A stretch of 45,377 nucleotides of DNA from Escherichia virus TH13: the sequence record MT446391.1, one strand, 5' to 3'. Numbering within the stretch: position 1 is the first letter of the stretch; every line of letters begins with the position of its first letter. Positions 3,588 through 33,327 of the stretch are shown one piece after another. The notes under the pieces are model-generated. The model searched no databases. It was not told the DNA's origin and saw only the letters and a program-made list of their open reading frames with translations. A program made the position numbers and the translations under genes.

Positions 3588-4674
3588 TCAACATATGGCG
3601 GATCGCATGATCCGTCGTCACATCTTCACCCAGCGCCTGAGCAATGACCAGGCGCGGCGGGTGCTGGCTATGTGGGAGAAGTTCCGGCCCACGTTACTGG
3701 GTAAGCTGACCGAGTTACTTGATGGCAAAAAGTCCATGAGCAACAAGGCACTTACCACACTATTAACGCAACTCGACAAGACCGTCAAAACGGAACTGCG
3801 CGCCGAGTTTAAAGTGCTGGCGGAGAGCCTTCGGGAGTTCGCCGACACCGAGGCTGATTATCTCGCTGACACACTAACGGCAGCGATCCAGCCCGCGGTC
3901 GCCGTGCCAGCGGTCGAAGTAGTGGGCGTTGTTACCGGCGCGCAGATTGCAGCGACGGCAATGAAAAACCAGTTCCAGGGTAACACCATGATGCAATGGC
4001 CTGACTCACTTTCCGAGTGGACCAGGACGCAGATCGGCAATCAGGTGCGCGCTGGATTCATCCAGGGCAAGCCGACTATGGAAATTATTGCGGACGTGAG
4101 GCGCGCGCTCGGCGGTCGAAGTGCGCAAGCTATCTCAAGCGTTGTTAAGTCCGCGGTCAACCACTATGCGGCGACCGCCCGCGAACTAATGGTAAAAGCA
4201 AATGACGATATTCTCGAAGGTCGCCAATGGTTGGCTACATTGGACACGCATACTTCTCCCATGTGCCAGCTACGCGATCGCCTGTTTTATCCGGTTGATG
4301 TTACTCCCGACACCAAAGGAAAGCGCGGCGGGAAAGTGGTGGCGGGGTCACAATATGGCGCTGGTCCGGGCAAGCTGCATTATTGCTGCCGTTCGACGGA
4401 GACGTGGAAAGTCAAAGGTATGGAAGATTGGCCCAGTGGTAAGCGTCCGGCACTGAAGGCTGACGCGGGCAGATTGCTGAGCGAGCAGGTCGACGCGCAG
4501 ACTGATTTCTTCTCATGGGTGCAGCGCCAGCCGCGCCATATTCTGGAAGAATTATACGGAGTGCAACGCGCCGACCAGATTATGCGCGGAGTGAAAGTGC
4601 CGAAGATGTTCACCGATTCCGGCGAACTAATGACTATCGCACAGCTTAAAAACCGGGGGTTATGGCGTGATTAA
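3571..4674 (+). CDS. head morphogenesis / minor capsid protein
   Basis: 367 aa ORF overlapping portal stop; canonical position after portal. Confidence 0.6.
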   Translation: MARTINQHMADRMIRRHIFTQRLSNDQARRVLAMWEKFRPTLLGKLTELLDGKKSMSNKALTTLLTQLDKTVKTELRAEFKVLAESLREFADTEADYLADTLTAAIQPAVAVPAVEVVGVVTGAQIAATAMKNQFQGNTMMQWPDSLSEWTRTQIGNQVRAGFIQGKPTMEIIADVRRALGGRSAQAISSVVKSAVNHYAATARELMVKANDDILEGRQWLATLDTHTSPMCQLRDRLFYPVDVTPDTKGKRGGKVVAGSQYGAGPGKLHYCCRSTETWKVKGMEDWPSGKRPALKADAGRLLSEQVDAQTDFFSWVQRQPRHILEELYGVQRADQIMRGVKVPKMFTDSGELMTIAQLKNRGLWRD

Positions 4675-5908: not shown

Positions 5909-5931
5909 GTGCAACCAATATATGCAACCAA
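5909..5931. promoter_or_regulatory. paired TGCAACCAAT motifs in divergent control region
   Basis: two direct copies of tgcaaccaat 13 bp apart between divergent genes 5123..5887 and the scaffold gene; same motif recurs about 20 times in the window. Confidence 0.45.
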
Positions 5932-23859: not shown

Positions 23860-23865
23860 GGAGAA

Positions 23866-23886
23866 GGGGCCATACGGCCCCTTTTT
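23866..23886. terminator. bidirectional terminator between late and early arms
   Basis: ggggcc-atac-ggcccc hairpin followed by T5; convergent genes on both sides. Confidence 0.65.
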
Positions 23887-24502: not shown

Positions 24503-24835
24503 TTATTTAAGTGCGCTAGTCACCAGTGTTTTTTCCATATTGCGGAAGTCTTCCGGCGTCATGAGGATTTTGGACCCATCCTCGCCAGTGAGCACGACCA
24601 TAGGCTGGACTTCTTGATCCGCAATGCCGAAATTGGCGGCTTTAACGGTCTTCCCTAACGAGGCCACCGTATCCTCGGCAACGCGCATTCCACTGTTATA
24701 CGCATTAATCTCGCCATCCAGGCGCACGGACAGGTCCGAAGGCTTGAACGCGCCGCCGGTCTTGATAGGCCAGCCCTTGAGGCTGTCGAATTGCGCTGCC
24801 GTTGTATCGATCTGAATCTCGTCATGCACGGTCAT
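24503..24835 (-). CDS. hypothetical protein
   Basis: 110 aa from internal ATG (MTVHDEIQ...) of track ORF 24503..24910. Confidence 0.45.
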   Translation of the reverse strand: MTVHDEIQIDTTAAQFDSLKGWPIKTGGAFKPSDLSVRLDGEINAYNSGMRVAEDTVASLGKTVKAANFGIADQEVQPMVVLTGEDGSKILMTPEDFRNMEKTLVTSALK

Positions 24836-24977
24836 GTAAGACTCGCCCGGTAAGCGCGTTAAACACGGCAGCGATCTGTTTCGCGCTGCGTTCTTCTTTC
24901 GCGTTGTCATAGCCGTTTTCTTTTCCGCGCTGTTCCATAGTGGTGGCGGCGTTTTTGCAGTATTCGTATGCTTTCAT
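24822..24977 (-). CDS. small hypothetical protein (51 aa)
   Basis: ATG with strong RBS aaaaggagacaaacc; reads MKAYEYCKNAATTMEQRGKENGYDNAKEERSAKQIAAVFNALTGRVLHDRA; below track cutoff; coordinates approximate. Confidence 0.4.
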   Translation of the reverse strand: MKAYEYCKNAATTMEQRGKENGYDNAKEERSAKQIAAVFNALTGRVLHDRA

Positions 24978-24994
24978 GGTTTGTCTCCTTTTAG

Positions 24995-25016
24995 GGGAGG
25001 CAGTATTGCCTCCCGA
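24995..25016 (-). other. conserved 5-prime stem-loop element copy A
   Basis: gggaggca-atac-tgcctccc perfect hairpin flanked by conserved aaccacatc, about 20 nt upstream of a start codon; near-identical copy at 25322..25343. Confidence 0.5.
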
Positions 25017-25028
25017 TGTGGTTGTGTG

Positions 25029-25298
25029 TTATTTCTTGGCCCACTCCAGAGTTTTACACTCGTAGTCTTCTTCGGCCTGGCTGAGCACACACGTCATCAT
25101 GTGCTCCGCATTGTCAAATCCGCTGGATTTAGCGTATTTATCTGCTCCTCCAACCTCTGCAATCTCGGCGTTTAGCGCCTCTACAGAATGCAGTTCGATA
25201 TTATTAAGATAAGGGCTTGAAACGCCTTCTTTGTCTTCAATCATTGACCAGAATGCGTTGATTTTGTTGTCCAGGTCCGCACTAATGAATTGTTTCAT
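25029..25298 (-). CDS. hypothetical protein
   Basis: 89 aa from ATG (MKQFISADLD...) with RBS aaggtg; track ORF 25029..25376 extends upstream through the hairpin. Confidence 0.5.
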   Translation of the reverse strand: MKQFISADLDNKINAFWSMIEDKEGVSSPYLNNIELHSVEALNAEIAEVGGADKYAKSSGFDNAEHMMTCVLSQAEEDYECKTLEWAKK

Positions 25299-25321
25299 AA
25301 TATTCACCTTTTTGTTGCGGG

Positions 25322-25343
25322 AGGCGGTATTGCCTCCCGATGT
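25322..25343 (-). other. conserved 5-prime stem-loop element copy B
   Basis: cgggaggc-aatacc-gcctcccg hairpin; same flanks as copy A. Confidence 0.5.
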
Positions 25344-25363
25344 GGTTAATATAGTTGGTTGCA

Positions 25364-25834
25364 TTATTGGTTGCAAGTGAATTTTGCAAGATTCACAGAA
25401 TAAATATGCGGGACCAGTTCTTCACACGCCCGTTTGATGGCGGCGATGTTCTTCGCGCAGTCGTCAATGATGACCAGTTCGTTAACTTCTGCATAGCACA
25501 CCAGGCCAAATACGGAACGGGCCTTGTACTCTGGCGGCGGCGTGTCATCAAGCATATGGCGTAAGAACAGACGACCTTTCGGGAATCTATCCAATTGCTC
25601 TTTCGTTGACTCCCAGCAATCTGACTGGCGGTTTGACAGGTACGCAATGTCGAAGCCCTGTTTAGCGTACATGCGCAATAACGGCAGCATGTCATAATTA
25701 ATGTCTTCGCGGACGTGGGCCTTATGCCACTTCGCCCAAAACGTTGATTTAGTCTTGATCCCCGGAACTAGGTCGTCGCGCACACTGCTTGACCCGTTGA
25801 TAACGCCATCTAAATCGCAAATCAGTAGTTTCAT
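25364..25834 (-). CDS. HAD-superfamily hydrolase (putative nucleotidase/phosphatase)
   Basis: 156 aa; N-terminal MKLLICDLDGVI matches HAD motif I (DxDG[TV]). Confidence 0.6.
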   Translation of the reverse strand: MKLLICDLDGVINGSSSVRDDLVPGIKTKSTFWAKWHKAHVREDINYDMLPLLRMYAKQGFDIAYLSNRQSDCWESTKEQLDRFPKGRLFLRHMLDDTPPPEYKARSVFGLVCYAEVNELVIIDDCAKNIAAIKRACEELVPHIYSVNLAKFTCNQ

Positions 25835-26052
25835 TTTAATTCCGCCATTAAATTTTCACGTACAATACGGGCCGAGAATGCGTCGCACACAAGATGGCAA
25901 CGCGCCGTCATGACAAGCCAGCCAGTTAGGTCAAGGCCCAGCAATTGATGAGGTTGGCTTGCGCGCCTTACTTTATTTCCAGGGAAAACCTGGTAGCGTT
26001 TAATTATTTCATCCACGACGCGAGGACTTCGGTCGACGACTAAGATATTCAT
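25831..26052 (-). CDS. small hypothetical protein
   Basis: 73 aa track ORF; start uncertain because it overlaps the 3-prime end of the methyltransferase gene. Confidence 0.3.
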   Translation of the reverse strand: MNILVVDRSPRVVDEIIKRYQVFPGNKVRRASQPHQLLGLDLTGWLVMTARCHLVCDAFSARIVRENLMAELK

Positions 26053-27007: not shown

Positions 27008-27017
27008 CTTAAGATAA

Positions 27018-27044
27018 TGCAACCAATATGATTATGCAACCAAT
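27018..27044 (-). promoter_or_regulatory. paired ATGCAACCAAT motifs / candidate promoter (TTGCAT-N17-TATCTT on minus strand)
   Basis: two copies of atgcaaccaat 17 bp apart in the intergenic gap between 27045..27368 and 26505..26963. Confidence 0.4.
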
Positions 27045-29937: not shown

Positions 29938-29968
29938 TTCTAAAATCCTCGATAGTGCTAACCGGCAC

Positions 29969-29997
29969 ACTATACCGCTACGCGACCAATTCAGCAA
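29969..29997 (-). promoter_or_regulatory. sigma70-like promoter (TTGCTG-N17-TATAGT) at left edge of tandem duplication; second copy at about 30556..30584
   Basis: -35 overlaps an AGCAACCAAT motif; -10 TATAGT; coordinates approximate. Confidence 0.4.
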
Positions 29998-30256
29998 CCA
30001 ATAAATCACAGTCGGCTATGTTGTCGATAACGCGAACGTCCGCACCGCGGCGGGCCATTCGTTCATGTTCACGTACCTGGTGCGGCTTCGGTTTCCCACC
30101 TGGGCGCTTCACTTCGACGAACACTATTTTGCCGTTGATGATAATAATCAGGTCGGGCGCACCTGCGCGCCCCTCCCATGCCAGTTTTCGGCAGAATCCC
30201 CCAACGGCTTTAACCAGCTTCATCAGGTGACTTTGTATCTTGCCTTCTGGTGTCAT
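29978..30256 (-). CDS. VRR-NUC domain nuclease, copy 1
   Basis: 92 aa; ...FVEVKRPGGKPKPHQ... with conserved D/E-x-K catalytic core typical of VRR-NUC. Confidence 0.8.
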   Translation of the reverse strand: MTPEGKIQSHLMKLVKAVGGFCRKLAWEGRAGAPDLIIIINGKIVFVEVKRPGGKPKPHQVREHERMARRGADVRVIDNIADCDLLVAELVA

Positions 30257-30444
30257 TTGGTCTGCAACTCCACGTTACGCAGACGAAGGTCTACCGGTAT
30301 ATCCGACCGGCCGGTTAGTGCCAGCGCCAGGTTTTCAGGCGTGACGAGTGCCGTAATGGTCTTGCCACGTTCCAGTCTAATGACGATTCGAATCTCGTCA
30401 TTGTCCGTCGCGCCAGCGCGCATAATGCTCATTTCTGCTTTCAT
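30253..30444 (-). CDS. small hypothetical protein, copy 1
   Basis: 63 aa from ATG (MKAEMSIMRAG...) with RBS caggaag; ATGA overlap with VRR-NUC. Confidence 0.45.
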   Translation of the reverse strand: MKAEMSIMRAGATDNDEIRIVIRLERGKTITALVTPENLALALTGRSDIPVDLRLRNVELQTK

Positions 30445-30564
30445 AATCTTACTTCCTGTACCTGTACATAATGTCGCCTTCGGCGGCAAGTGGGAAGCCT
30501 TTCGCCCAAATAGGCAGGTCGCACATCTAAAATCCTCGATAGTGCTAACCGGCACACTATACCG

Positions 30565-30843
30565 CTACGCGACCAATTCAGCAACCAATAAATCACAGTC
30601 GGCTATGTTGTCGATAACGCGAACGTCCGCACCGCGGCGGGCCATTCGTTCATGTTCACGTACCTGGTGCGGCTTCGGTTTCCCACCTGGGCGCTTCACT
30701 TCGACGAACACTATTTTGCCGTTGATGATAATAATCAGGTCGGGCGCACCTGCGCGCCCCTCCCATGCCAGTTTTCGGCAGAATCCCCCAACGGCTTTAA
30801 CCAGCTTCATCAGGTGACTTTGTATCTTGCCTTCTGGTGTCAT
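30565..30843 (-). CDS. VRR-NUC domain nuclease, copy 2
   Basis: identical 92-aa translation to copy 1. Confidence 0.8.
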   Translation of the reverse strand: MTPEGKIQSHLMKLVKAVGGFCRKLAWEGRAGAPDLIIIINGKIVFVEVKRPGGKPKPHQVREHERMARRGADVRVIDNIADCDLLVAELVA

Positions 30844-31031
30844 TTGGTCTGCAACTCCACGTTACGCAGACGAAGGTCTACCGGTATATCCGACCGGCCG
30901 GTTAGTGCCAGCGCCAGGTTTTCAGGCGTGACGAGTGCCGTAATGGTCTTGCCACGTTCCAGTCTAATGACGATTCGAATCTCGTCATTGTCCGTCGCGC
31001 CAGCGCGCATAATGCTCATTTCTGCTTTCAT
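30840..31031 (-). CDS. small hypothetical protein, copy 2
   Basis: identical 63-aa translation; begins 5 nt after DNA polymerase stop. Confidence 0.45.
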   Translation of the reverse strand: MKAEMSIMRAGATDNDEIRIVIRLERGKTITALVTPENLALALTGRSDIPVDLRLRNVELQTK

Positions 31032-31035
31032 AATC

Positions 31036-33327
31036 TTACTTCCTGTACCTGTACATAATGTCGCCTTCGGCGGCAAGTGGGAAGCCTTTCGCCCAAATAG
31101 GCAGGTCGCACATCAGCGCGCAAAGCTCCTCGGTCGTGTAGTCGTCGGTGTCCGGCACTTCTGTGATCAATTCGTCGTGTACTGACAGGACGATTTCATA
31201 TCCGGCAGCTTCAACGCCTGGCATGGACCATGCGAGAATATCGCGGCACAACGCCTGTACGATGTTCTCCGTCAGTTTGCCGCCGTAGGTGTACTGGAAG
31301 CCCCACTGGCGCGTAGTCTGATTCTCGCCCTGGTATTTGATGCGGGTGCTGGTGCGCTTCTTGCCGGTGTCTTCGTCAATCTCGGTCGTGACCGACAGCG
31401 CGATGCCTGGGTAGCTCATGATGCGCCCGGACGGCAACTCAATTTTCAACCACCACCCAGCGGCGTTCGGGTCGTCGCGCTCCTCGTCGAAGGTTGGGTC
31501 GTGCTTCGCCTTCGTGCGCACAATCTTAAGCGCTTTCCTACCGTCCGGGCGAACGTTCGCGCCGGCCCAGTATGCTTTGCCAGGATTGCGGATCGCACAT
31601 AACACCGCGTCCTCAAGCTCGGCCCAAAAGGCTACCGTCTTCGGGTGAGCCTCGCGCCACATACGTTTGATTGCGTCACAAGTCAGCCATACGTTTTTCG
31701 GCAGTATGTATGTTGGGCGCTCGTCCTTCTTACCGGGCTTCGGCGGGCGCTTCGCTTCGTTAATGCGGGCGTACTCATAACCACGTTTCGCCGCGGCCCA
31801 AATGTGATCCGGGAACGTGCCTTTCATCACGTCCGCCATAGTGTAAAGGTCGAGGCCCAGGTTTTTAGCGAACTGCAAGAACGCCGCGACGCCGCCACCA
31901 TAGCCCAGTCCCAATTCACACGCCTTACCGATCTGGCGCAAGTCTTTGCGGTTGGCTTTGATGTAATCCGGGTCAAGGCCGAACATCTTACCGGCAGTCT
32001 CGCAATAGATATCGCGACCGGCCTTAAACACCATTAGCGCGGTTTTCTCGCCCGCGATCCAGGCAAGGCCACGCCCTTCCACGTTGGAGTAGTCCGCGAC
32101 GACAAACTTCTTGCCCTTCGCCGGAATGATGCACCCACGAACGGTCGAGGCGGTCAGCTTAGATATGTCATACGCCCAGTGCGCGGTCCCGCGTAACAGG
32201 GAGTTGATGCCGTTGGTGAGCATGTGCGACCGCACCCAAAACGAGACGTCGCTCTCGCCTTCGCGGCGCTTAATCTTCCCTTCGTGGTCGTCGCTATACT
32301 CGCCGCGTGCCAGGTTTTGCGGCTGGAAGCCTTTACCTGCCCAGCGCAGCGTGCGCTTTGCACCACCATACTGAAGACACCCACGGCGGCGACCATCTGC
32401 GGATAAGCCATTAACGAGCGGATTGTACTTAGTCGAGGCCGTTGATGACGCGCCGAGGCGCATTTCGATAAGCGCTTTGCCTTCGTCGGGGAAGTCCGTG
32501 TCTTCAAGCAGGTCGTTAAGTGTGGATTTCTGCGCGTTGTGGATTGTGAACGCCGGGGCGATATCACGCAGGATTGGCAGGAAGTCATTGCCTGTCAGTT
32601 TACCACCAAATCGCTCCCAGGCTTCCTCCTTCAATTCTTCCTTATGCGCCTGCACCGCTTTGATCGCGGCGTTCGCCAGGTCAACGTCCACATAGAATCC
32701 GCGGTCGTTGATCAACTGGTCAATAAGCAGTATCTCGTCTTCCTTCGGAGTATTACCCCAGTCCGGTATGCGCCAGTAGACCTCACGCATCGCGATAATA
32801 TCCAGCGCGGCATATCGCAGAAATTTGGCCCATTCTTCAGGGTGAGTCTCGCGCGTGTAGCGGCGTATTTTGTAGGTCTTAGGGGTAGGCTTACAGAATC
32901 GTTTGATCAGCGCCTTGCCTGCCTTATCCTTCGCGTGCTCTGCGTCAACGCCCAGCACCTGACACTGCATATCGAGGCTACCCGGCAGCGCGTGCCGAAA
33001 GGCCATAATCATGGTATCTTCGATCTGGCACACTGGCAGGTCAATGCCCCACTTCTCGCGAATGACCAGGCGGTCAAACAGGAGGCCGTTAGCCATCACG
33101 ATTTTTGCTTTCTTGCGGCATACCTGGCGGAGCGCCTTGCGCAGTTCACGCGGCATTGTTGGGGATTCAGTGGCATCCCATGTCTGCACGCGGCCCTCGT
33201 CGATGGCGTATGTGCAAATCATAATCTCGGTGGTTGGGTGCTCTGCGTAGGCGTACGCCCCTACTTTCTTCAGGTCAACCCCGCTGAATGTCTCGGTGTC
33301 GAGAAACAGGCGTTCGAAGTCTTTCAT
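31036..33327 (-). CDS. DNA polymerase, family A (Pol I-like) with N-terminal 3-prime-5-prime exonuclease-like region
   Basis: 763 aa; LSVHDELITEV (motif C-like HDE), ELGLGYGGG motif B-like region; last 26 codons are duplicated in the tandem repeat. Confidence 0.85.
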   Translation of the reverse strand: MKDFERLFLDTETFSGVDLKKVGAYAYAEHPTTEIMICTYAIDEGRVQTWDATESPTMPRELRKALRQVCRKKAKIVMANGLLFDRLVIREKWGIDLPVCQIEDTMIMAFRHALPGSLDMQCQVLGVDAEHAKDKAGKALIKRFCKPTPKTYKIRRYTRETHPEEWAKFLRYAALDIIAMREVYWRIPDWGNTPKEDEILLIDQLINDRGFYVDVDLANAAIKAVQAHKEELKEEAWERFGGKLTGNDFLPILRDIAPAFTIHNAQKSTLNDLLEDTDFPDEGKALIEMRLGASSTASTKYNPLVNGLSADGRRRGCLQYGGAKRTLRWAGKGFQPQNLARGEYSDDHEGKIKRREGESDVSFWVRSHMLTNGINSLLRGTAHWAYDISKLTASTVRGCIIPAKGKKFVVADYSNVEGRGLAWIAGEKTALMVFKAGRDIYCETAGKMFGLDPDYIKANRKDLRQIGKACELGLGYGGGVAAFLQFAKNLGLDLYTMADVMKGTFPDHIWAAAKRGYEYARINEAKRPPKPGKKDERPTYILPKNVWLTCDAIKRMWREAHPKTVAFWAELEDAVLCAIRNPGKAYWAGANVRPDGRKALKIVRTKAKHDPTFDEERDDPNAAGWWLKIELPSGRIMSYPGIALSVTTEIDEDTGKKRTSTRIKYQGENQTTRQWGFQYTYGGKLTENIVQALCRDILAWSMPGVEAAGYEIVLSVHDELITEVPDTDDYTTEELCALMCDLPIWAKGFPLAAEGDIMYRYRK

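Follow-up and report, generated by a model that had tools for sequence, protein, structure and literature searches.

Stem-loops at the 5′ terminus are known to stabilize mRNAs of Escherichia coli, the usual examples being the 5′ untranslated region (5′-UTR) of ompA and the phage T7 gene 10 leader of expression vectors. RppH requires unpaired 5′ nucleotides, and hairpins of the ompA type act by structure alone, without conservation of their sequence across replicons. Protection by a 5′-terminal stem-loop was reportedly described by Emory, Bouvet and Belasco in 1992 and by Mackie in 1998. Two kinds of described elements carry a stem-loop as part of a cassette. These are the PeSL elements, mobile regulatory cassettes of T4-like phages (Arbiol et al., 2010, PMC2839356; Comeau et al., 2014, PMC4122927), and the CUP (conserved upstream) repeats in the leading region of the IncN plasmids pKM101/R46 (Delver and Belogurov, 1997, J Mol Biol 271:13, as cited in PMC6289460, PMC5371602, and PMC6294495). 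In this study, a hairpin element which occurs twice in a 45,377-nt stretch of Escherichia virus TH13 (MT446391.1; this whole stretch is called the window) was compared with these systems. Over this region the sequence matches Escherichia virus TH11 (MT446389), a siphophage of the Dhillonvirus group, with 100% identity, and the locus is referred to as that of TH11 below. The explanation judged to have somewhat better than an even chance is that the element is a portable, promoter-proximal mRNA leader hairpin, which protects the 5′ end and was duplicated by the insertion of an accessory gene, named MKQFIS here.

The genes from about 23.9 kb to 37 kb of the window are located on the minus strand, and the element must therefore be read on this strand. 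It is defined there as AACCACATC followed by GGGAGGC-AATACY-GCCTCCC. The 21-mer AACCACATCGGGAGGCAATAC has exactly two matches in the window, both on the minus strand (25347..25327 and 25023..25003), and shuffled sequences gave 0 matches, even with up to 3 mismatches. An unfiltered covariance model search of the window identified the same two places only, copy A with 45.2 bits and copy B with 45.9 bits, followed by the reverse strands of these copies with 15 bits or less. The two copies differ at a single loop position (AATACC vs. AATACT). A near-identical stem-loop present twice had been reported in an earlier note on this DNA, together with a start codon about 20 nt downstream of each copy and the absence of a U-tract, and this description was confirmed. 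The stem ends 20 nt (copy A, ATG 25298-25296) and 17 nt (copy B, ATG 24977-24975) before the start codon, the tails read GCAACAAAAAGG and CTAAAAGGAG (also given as CUAAAAGGAG), and neither copy is listed by a terminator scan, so that a Rho-independent terminator was rejected. The spacing is 324 bp instead of the 327 bp given there, and the proposed span of 24995-25343 omits 4 nt of the 9-mer of copy A at its end.

The predicted folds of the 57-nt leaders are dominated by a G-C hairpin of 7-8 bp (-18.5 and -15.9 kcal/mol, z about -4), and 0 of 200 shuffles folded equally well. In copy A an additional C-G pair (25339/25318) extends the stem. The element is non-coding, always in sense orientation and positioned just 5′ of ribosome-binding sites. 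A search of Rfam 15 with both strands of 24800-25500 returned only a chance-level match elsewhere (E = 4.1).

A sigma70-like promoter, TTGCAA-17-TATATT (25376..25348), is predicted upstream of copy A, which occupies +4..+23 of the predicted transcript. As the A of ATC is base 7 downstream of the -10 box, this transcript would start with AUC and continue with the stem. A register table was compiled from 29 distinct contexts, comprising phage and plasmid copies. In 25 of these, TAnnnT ends exactly 6 nt before a purine-UC-stem sequence and a -35 box is found 16-18 nt upstream. The four exceptions are copy B, which has ACACAC for the -10 box, the ccgC copy of IncN plasmids, one locus with a 1-nt shift and a 58-kb contig from IMG/VR with a weak -35 box. 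Further promoter-plus-hairpin pairs were not found in the window. The view that the element lies inside a polycistronic transcript applies to one of the copies: copy B, which starts 6 nt past the stop codon of MKQFIS, is purely intercistronic and has no promoter, but for copy A a separate transcript is predicted with the element at its 5′ end, and transcription may also read through from the operon upstream.

At this promoter, the gp27 promoter, the motif TGCAACCAA overlaps the -35 box and the spacer. With one mismatch allowed, this motif occurs 13 times in the window (3.4 expected), often in close pairs, with sites at 25355-25376, 5909-5931, 27017-27043, 37436, 40305, 40713, 41260, and 43833, and it may be the operator of a phage regulator. 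A second copy of the motif at the gp27 promoter is direct in TH11, McMelon, Pandora71 and slur05 and inverted in most other Dhillonviruses, forming the palindrome TGCAACCAAtaggTTGGTTGCA.

The intercistronic position of copy B, which is followed by CUAAAAGG, would suit an RNA processing signal, at which an endonuclease such as RNase E, acting on the A-rich 3′ flank, separates the cistrons while the hairpin protects the 3′ end of the upstream fragment. Many members of the family carry (A)CUAAAAAGG after the stem, and stem-loops that set differential stability at cistron boundaries are well known. However, the hairpin of nearly every member lies at a predicted primary 5′ end and not between cistrons, the A-rich stretch can also simply be the spacer of the ribosome-binding site, and there are no mapped cleavage sites. 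RNase III needs roughly two helical turns of double-stranded RNA, i.e., about 20 bp or more, and was rejected, as the stem comprises 7-8 bp and no longer helix appears in 101-nt folds. A processing signal is thus considered improbable. The earlier suggestion of an RNA processing or stability element is supported as far as an RNA-level structure is concerned, and by analogy mRNA stability is its most likely function, whereas processing by RNase III is excluded.

For the analysis of conservation, 14 Dhillonvirus loci were fetched via the neighboring phosphatase protein and not via the hairpin. The promoter, the hairpin and the gp27 start were found at this site in all 14 loci. Hardly any change is seen in the promoter and in the gp27 coding sequence. 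Variation affects the discriminator, loop position 6 and the 3′ flank of the stem, and the UC, the pairing of the stem and the loop GC-AAUAC are kept. The stem occurs in the forms GGGAGGC/GCCUCCC, GGGGGC/GCCCCC, GGGGC/GCCCC, and GGGGGC/GCCUCC with lengths of 7, 6, and 5 bp, and changes are matched across both arms. In an alignment of 25 phage sequences 96.9% of the cells pair, compared to 52-66% when the 3′ partner is slid, and in 34 sequences including plasmids the value is 93.2% (slid controls overall 50-66%). The middle pair of the 25 phage sequences is A-U in 10, G-C in 10, C-G in one and G.U in one; across the alignments it is A-U in 10 or 11, G-C in 10 and C-G in one or two, besides G.U or U.G. 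Two Dhillonvirus sequences have an A.C mismatch. The compensated changes give real, albeit modest support for the structure. A mimicry of Shine-Dalgarno and anti-Shine-Dalgarno sequences (GGAGG/CCUCC) was dropped, as these are absent from the GGGGGC stems and the 3′ arms of the CUP repeats, and a lambda nut-like boxA-boxB as well as a T3/T7-type promoter were rejected by eye on spacing and loop type.

Outside the Dhillonviruses, a BLAST search with 36 nt detected the element in the jumbo phages Kaldavass and Serratia BF with relatives, in the Vequintavirinae ABPH49 and pEp_SNUABM_01, in Pondi (Xuquatrovirus) and in Bas95. A pattern scan of IMG/VR added the uncultured 58-kb contig, and BLAST with the plasmid CUP sequence added a Vibrio phage with a degenerate 3′ arm. 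At least five further phage lineages thus carry the leader, consisting of RUC, a G-rich stem and the loop AAUACN, with the same 6 nt between it and the -10 box. All these phage copies are in sense orientation, follow a sigma70-like promoter and precede the start codon by about 20-27 nt. The stem of pEp_SNUABM_01 (GGGCGGC/GCCGCCU) shows a compensated change from A-U to C-G, and this copy is the only one followed by UUUUCU. The downstream proteins belong to different PHROG families (7287, 9871, 10173, 21330, 3199, or none). Autoregulation by the downstream protein was rejected, since at least six unrelated downstream families were counted. A common downstream gene is present only in BF, Kaldavass and ABPH49, where it has 39% identity and the hairpins are almost identical.

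As a gene-anchored control, other homologs of phrog_10173 with 41-48% amino acid identity were inspected (LTH01, RaK2, PHA46, and a 360-kb contig). In each of them a sigma70-like promoter is followed by a hairpin, 3-8 nt past the predicted start, and the stems differ: LTH01 has GGGCGGC-AAUGUU-GCCGCUC, RaK2 has GGGAAGC-AAUAGU-GCCUCCC, and PHA46 and the 360-kb contig have another hairpin of 9 bp after CAUCG. A stricter IMG/VR pattern found three known isolates only, and a looser one mostly chance matches besides four real copies (the three known isolates and the 58-kb contig). The GTDB genome scan gave three matches in unrelated metagenome-assembled genomes, about the chance expectation estimated for this pattern, so that the element is not a chromosomal one. 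A scan of metagenomes returned IncN CUP repeats and chance matches, with no convincing new phage lineage among the matches listed.

Different GC hairpins with a GAAA or AAAA loop were observed at other small-gene junctions of Lzu_P1 (GGCCCC-GAAA-GGGGCC; sequence L037, 2778-2818), rV5 and LTH01 (GGGCC-RAAA-GGCCC followed by ACUAA; L040, about 980-1030, and L041, about 975-1020). They have no U-tract, the next start codon follows at 20-40 nt, and such hairpin-plus-ACUAA leaders may be a wider habit of the accessory regions of coliphages.

The element is not restricted to phages. It was found at 510 places in 197 complete E. coli genomes, 506 of the places being on plasmids, and at 3707 places in 828 records of PLSDB, almost all of which are conjugative plasmids of Enterobacterales. 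The plasmid matches are the CUP repeats of the IncN leading region, located before ardB, ccgD, ccgC, ardA, ccgAI, and other genes, with the layout TTGACT-17-GATAAT-taaatc-ATCGGGAGGCAATACCGCC[A/G]CCC-gaaaaatt-GCCGGTATCGGC-...AGGAG-ATG. A covariance model trained exclusively on phage sequences recognizes 12 CUP leaders with 21-39 bits (E from 6e-3 to 3e-7). The overlap between phages and CUP repeats is about 30 nt long, and a 131-nt CUP query in BLAST matches phages over the hairpin part only. No relatives of the CUP-regulon proteins were found among the phage genes examined, and tblastn of ArdK, ArdR, ArdA, ArdB, and Ccg proteins against the whole window gave nothing below E = 0.1. In the literature searched, no paper was found that links lytic phages to the CUP regulon of the IncN plasmids, which are resistance plasmids, through this leader of about 30 nt. 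The regulatory role of the CUP repeats has, according to PMC6294495, not been studied in detail.

In the IncN plasmid pAMSC4 (sequence L059, 8061-8088), a promoter-less CUP remnant upstream of ccgC has its first bases within the -10 box (TAATTAAATC + ATCGGGTGGC...). Copy B, with its start immediately behind the -10 position, is a parallel case, and both are truncated at the boundary between the -10 box and the discriminator. A kissing interaction between the loop of CUP hairpin 1 and hairpin 2 was also considered on the basis of 5 complementary nucleotides, but was rejected because covariation is lacking and phages have no hairpin 2.

The inverted repeat GGGAGGC-N6-GCCTCCC at +4..+23 could also act at the DNA level, as the operator of a dimeric repressor which blocks the promoter. 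It is perfect over 7 bp and placed right downstream of the promoter, and the CUP regulon of IncN plasmids is repressor-controlled, with the site of its second regulator ArdR not described in the portions of the literature searched. However, the pattern of conservation is the reverse, as the arms vary in length and sequence with compensation while the asymmetric center is conserved. The mapped ArdK operators are located at the -35 box and not at the hairpin (PMC9723621), promoter-less intercistronic copies exist, and the element is always in sense orientation. In addition, the phages share no regulator and the window contains no homolog of ArdK or ArdR, which renders an operator distinctly improbable.

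A further, unlikely explanation assumes that the hairpin is bound by a specific trans-acting factor, which may come from the host (a protein or an RNA) or be shared by these mobile elements, and which controls translation or decay of immediate-early or establishment messages. The stem would then present the loop AAUAC and the 5′ UC. Phage families and IncN plasmids agree in loop positions 1-5, in the closing C-G pair and in the UC before the stem, whereas their arms and flanks differ. The hairpin has hardly changed in cases where the identity of the downstream protein has dropped to 39%, and promoter-less modules (copy B, ccgC of IncN) suggest that its value is not tied to transcription initiation. 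On the other hand, no candidate factor and no Rfam family was found, the window has no homolog of ArdK, ArdR, or another member of the CUP regulon, and the gene-anchored relatives PHA46 and LTH01 keep a hairpin but not the loop sequence. Recent horizontal spread could explain part of the identity. A more specific and decidedly speculative version is that the AAUAC-loop hairpin is recognized by a host factor (an RNA-binding protein, a ribonuclease, or an RNA) and forms an "establishment leader" shared by lytic phages and IncN conjugative plasmids. If so, it would stand at the 5′ end of the accessory and anti-defense genes expressed first and would secure their expression in the naive cell or escape a host response at the RNA level.

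The presence of two copies in the window is explained by the gene between them. Most Dhillonviruses have a single copy directly before gp27, and MKQFIS between two copies is found among Dhillonviruses only in TH11, McMelon and Pandora71 (268 of 270 nt identical between the MKQFIS genes of Pandora71 and TH11). In slur05 MKQFIS is missing and a single hybrid copy is present, in which the TH11-type promoter and the half of copy A are joined to the 3′ flank of copy B and gp27. The difference between TH11 and slur05 is therefore an indel with its end-points inside the repeat. Such an indel would be produced by a single crossover of a circular or foreign unit of leader and gene, or by deletion between direct repeats. 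The copies are the flanks of a gene-cassette insertion and not two separate regulatory sites. MKQFIS (phrog_7287) also occurs in rV5-like, RB49-like and T1-like phages with 37-60% identity, and in Lzu_P1 this place is taken by an extra gene of another kind. Since the homologs align from residue 1, ATG 25298 is taken as the start of MKQFIS. In the annotation of McMelon (sequence L001, 3382-3717) the gene starts from an upstream ATG within the promoter and runs through the hairpin to give 111 aa; the homologs and Pandora71 favor the 89-aa version.

With the indel of TH11 and slur05 bounded by repeats and the leader standing before unrelated genes in unrelated replicons, the element could in principle be a functionless scar, i.e., promoter-leader DNA which co-infecting phages and resident IncN plasmids exchange by homologous recombination. 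Recombination between CUP repeats has been reported for IncN2 plasmids (PMC5371602). This is regarded as highly improbable, because the pairing is kept through changes of the stem, the loop is conserved among variable neighbors, a hairpin is retained upstream of phrog_10173 genes at 39-48% identity, and the register with the -10 box is fixed.

For the protective leader hairpin, which is the favored explanation, the following mechanism is proposed. A host-type sigma70 promoter, conserved at this site in all Dhillonviruses sampled, would start transcription at A25341. The RNA would begin with pppAUC, followed directly by the G-C hairpin of 7-8 bp with the loop AAUACY, an unpaired A-rich spacer, the Shine-Dalgarno sequence and the start codon. 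The 5′-terminal hairpin would hide the 5′ end from RppH and from 5′-end-dependent cleavage by RNase E, and would keep the ribosome-binding site free of upstream structure, which would lead to a stable and well-translated message. MKQFIS would have been inserted by recombination within the leader, leaving one copy on each side, and the same recombination could delete it again, as seen in the single hybrid copy of slur05. Copy B would be read within the transcript of copy A or within longer transcripts from upstream. The protective role is proposed because of the general precedent of 5′-terminal stem-loops. In addition to this role, the leader most likely acts as a recombination patch for gene cassettes.

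Several observations weigh against this explanation. Only one of the seven pairs covaries, the others being invariant G-C pairs and thus uninformative, most plasmid copies carry a mismatch (A.A, A.G, or A.C) at the middle pair, and wobble pairs favor the sense strand only 7 to 3. No mapped transcript 5′ end was found for any member of the family. The AAUAC loop and the UC before the stem are conserved, although a plain stabilizer needs neither, so that something sequence-specific is left unexplained. The IMG/VR 58-kb contig and Vibrio phage 1.187.O keep the 5′ half while the 3′ arm has decayed, and the 5′ sequence itself may therefore matter. Finally, an internal stem-loop is readily bypassed by scanning RNase E, as described for an orthogonal stem-loop (PMC9943677). 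Copy B and the IncN ccgC copy have no promoter, and 5′-end protection thus cannot be their role unless processing creates a 5′ end nearby.

The coordinates of the leader and of the neighboring genes are listed in Table 1. Along the direction of transcription, a DNA methylase gene, the Ksap1 homolog and the phosphatase gene are followed by copy A, MKQFIS, copy B, the gp27 homolog, gp26 (phrog_10558), and a terminator-like hairpin, which probably closes the transcription unit of the leader. Judging from the gene order, the genes behind the leader may be early.

Table 1. Positions of the leader, its predicted signals and the adjacent genes in the window.
Feature	Position	Strand	Description
Predicted -35 box TTGCAA	25371..25376	-	Inside the last codons of the phosphatase/polynucleotide-kinase-like gene; from promoter scan, near-invariant in 14 Dhillonvirus loci
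Predicted -10 box TATATT	25348..25353	-	17-nt spacer; ends 6 nt before the A of AUC, directly before the 9-mer
Predicted transcription start, A of AUCGGGAGGC	25341	-	Purine 7 nt after the -10 box in 25/29 contexts; predicted position
Copy A	25319..25347	-	Discriminator and start AACCACATC, then hairpin GGGAGGC-AAUACC-GCCUCCC
Copy A, parts		-	9-mer 25347-25339, 5′ arm 25338-25332, loop AATACC 25331-25326, 3′ arm 25325-25319
Copy B	24995..25023	-	AACCACATC, then hairpin GGGAGGC-AAUACU-GCCUCCC
Copy B, parts		-	9-mer 25023-25015, 5′ arm 25014-25008, loop AATACT 25007-25002, 3′ arm 25001-24995
Shine-Dalgarno-like AGGTG of MKQFIS	25305..25309	-	After A-rich spacer CAACAAAA; read from the sequence
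Shine-Dalgarno AAGGAG of gp27 homolog	24985..24990	-	Read from the sequence
Ksap1 homolog	25831..26052	-	73 aa, phrog_10685; between methylase and phosphatase genes
HAD phosphatase/polynucleotide-kinase-like gene	25364..25834	-	3′ end holds the -35 box of the leader promoter
Accessory gene MKQFIS	25029..25298	-	89 aa, phrog_7287
gp27 homolog	24503..24977	-	DUF6378, phrog_9871; gene served by the leader in all Dhillonviruses
Terminator-like hairpin	23864..23883	-	Common to the convergent tail-fiber gene

Two genes upstream of the leader, the open reading frame 25831-26052 is found at the position of Ksap1, the Dhillonvirus protein which triggers KpAvs2, and its location between the methylase and phosphatase genes matches the published one (PMC11564622). 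The gp27 homolog of the window is split into open reading frames of 51 and 135 aa, whereas the versions of McMelon and Lzu_P1 have 184 aa. The split is due to an internal deletion and a frameshift with a loss of approximately residues 46-85, and represents either a pseudogene or a sequencing error. Elsewhere in the window, a perfect 587-bp tandem duplication was observed (29939-30527 identical to 30526-31114), which doubles a minus-strand open reading frame of 92 aa (29978..30256 and 30565..30843) and is either real or an assembly artifact.

By this analysis, an anonymous repeat becomes a defined module of promoter, hairpin at +4, A-rich spacer and Shine-Dalgarno sequence, which marks the entry and exit of accessory genes in Dhillonvirus. 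The module can aid annotation, e.g., in the case of the McMelon gene call running through the hairpin, and offers engineers a natural site for insertions and a leader for expression beside Ksap1 and gp27. Should the conserved loop have a specific partner, this would explain the control of plasmid anti-restriction genes and phage accessory genes alike. From the portions of the CUP literature consulted, the role of the hairpin within the CUP repeats appears to be unstudied.

With the PeSL elements of T4-like phages the leader shares the small conserved cassette of sigma70 promoter, stem-loop, Shine-Dalgarno sequence and start codon. It also flanks accessory open reading frames and marks indel end-points between close relatives, as found for TH11, McMelon and Pandora71 vs. 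slur05. Both phrog_7287 and phrog_10173, which stand behind the TH11-type leader, are also present in RB49/phi1, and the phrog_10173 homolog of RB49 has a stem-loop enclosing the -10 box of the promoter directly upstream, an arrangement of the PeSL kind. In contrast, the PeSL stem-loop is located upstream of the promoter or overlaps it and terminates incoming transcription, whereas the stem in the window lies downstream of the start at +4..+23 and has no U-tract, so that it differs from PeSL in this feature. Moreover, PeSL elements occur in tens of copies in the hyperplastic regions of T4-like phages and the leader in two copies in TH11.

In the comparison with the CUP repeats, their first leader hairpin, ATCGGGAGGCAATACCGCC[A/G]CCC, and the hairpin of TH11, ATCGGGAGGCAATACCGCCTCCC, are nearly identical, and in the register table both the phage and the plasmid group have the -10 box, a 6-nt discriminator and then ATC. 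In TH11, too, a hairpin of the type ATCGGGNGGC-AAYRCC-GCCNCCC follows a sigma70 -10 box at a fixed distance. Both elements are in sense orientation ahead of a Shine-Dalgarno sequence and an ATG, head many unrelated small genes, exist as full and as promoter-less copies and are sites of rearrangement. However, the CUP repeats are described as more than 400 bp long (PMC6294495) and present in 4-7 copies per plasmid, compared to two copies of 29-31 nt in the window. They contain a second small hairpin, GCCGGUAUCGGC, before the Shine-Dalgarno sequence, a motif absent from the window, and they have ArdK direct-repeat operators at the -35 box (PMC9723621 and PMC6289460), where the TH11 promoter has the TGCAACCAA repeats. 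All pairs are formed in the phage stem, whereas the middle pair is mismatched in the majority of CUP copies.

With the 5′-terminal stabilizers of E. coli mRNAs the leader would have in common a GC-rich hairpin within about 3 nt of the predicted 5′ end (2-3 unpaired nucleotides), followed by an unpaired A-rich spacer and the Shine-Dalgarno sequence. It differs from them in that the loop and the 5′ UC are conserved in the phage and CUP element, while its 5′ end is a predicted one and a stabilizing effect is proposed by analogy. As far as sequence comparison can tell, the element would thus be CUP-like in its hairpin and register only and PeSL-like as a recombination cassette only, and by analogy it would fit the general class of 5′ stabilizers.

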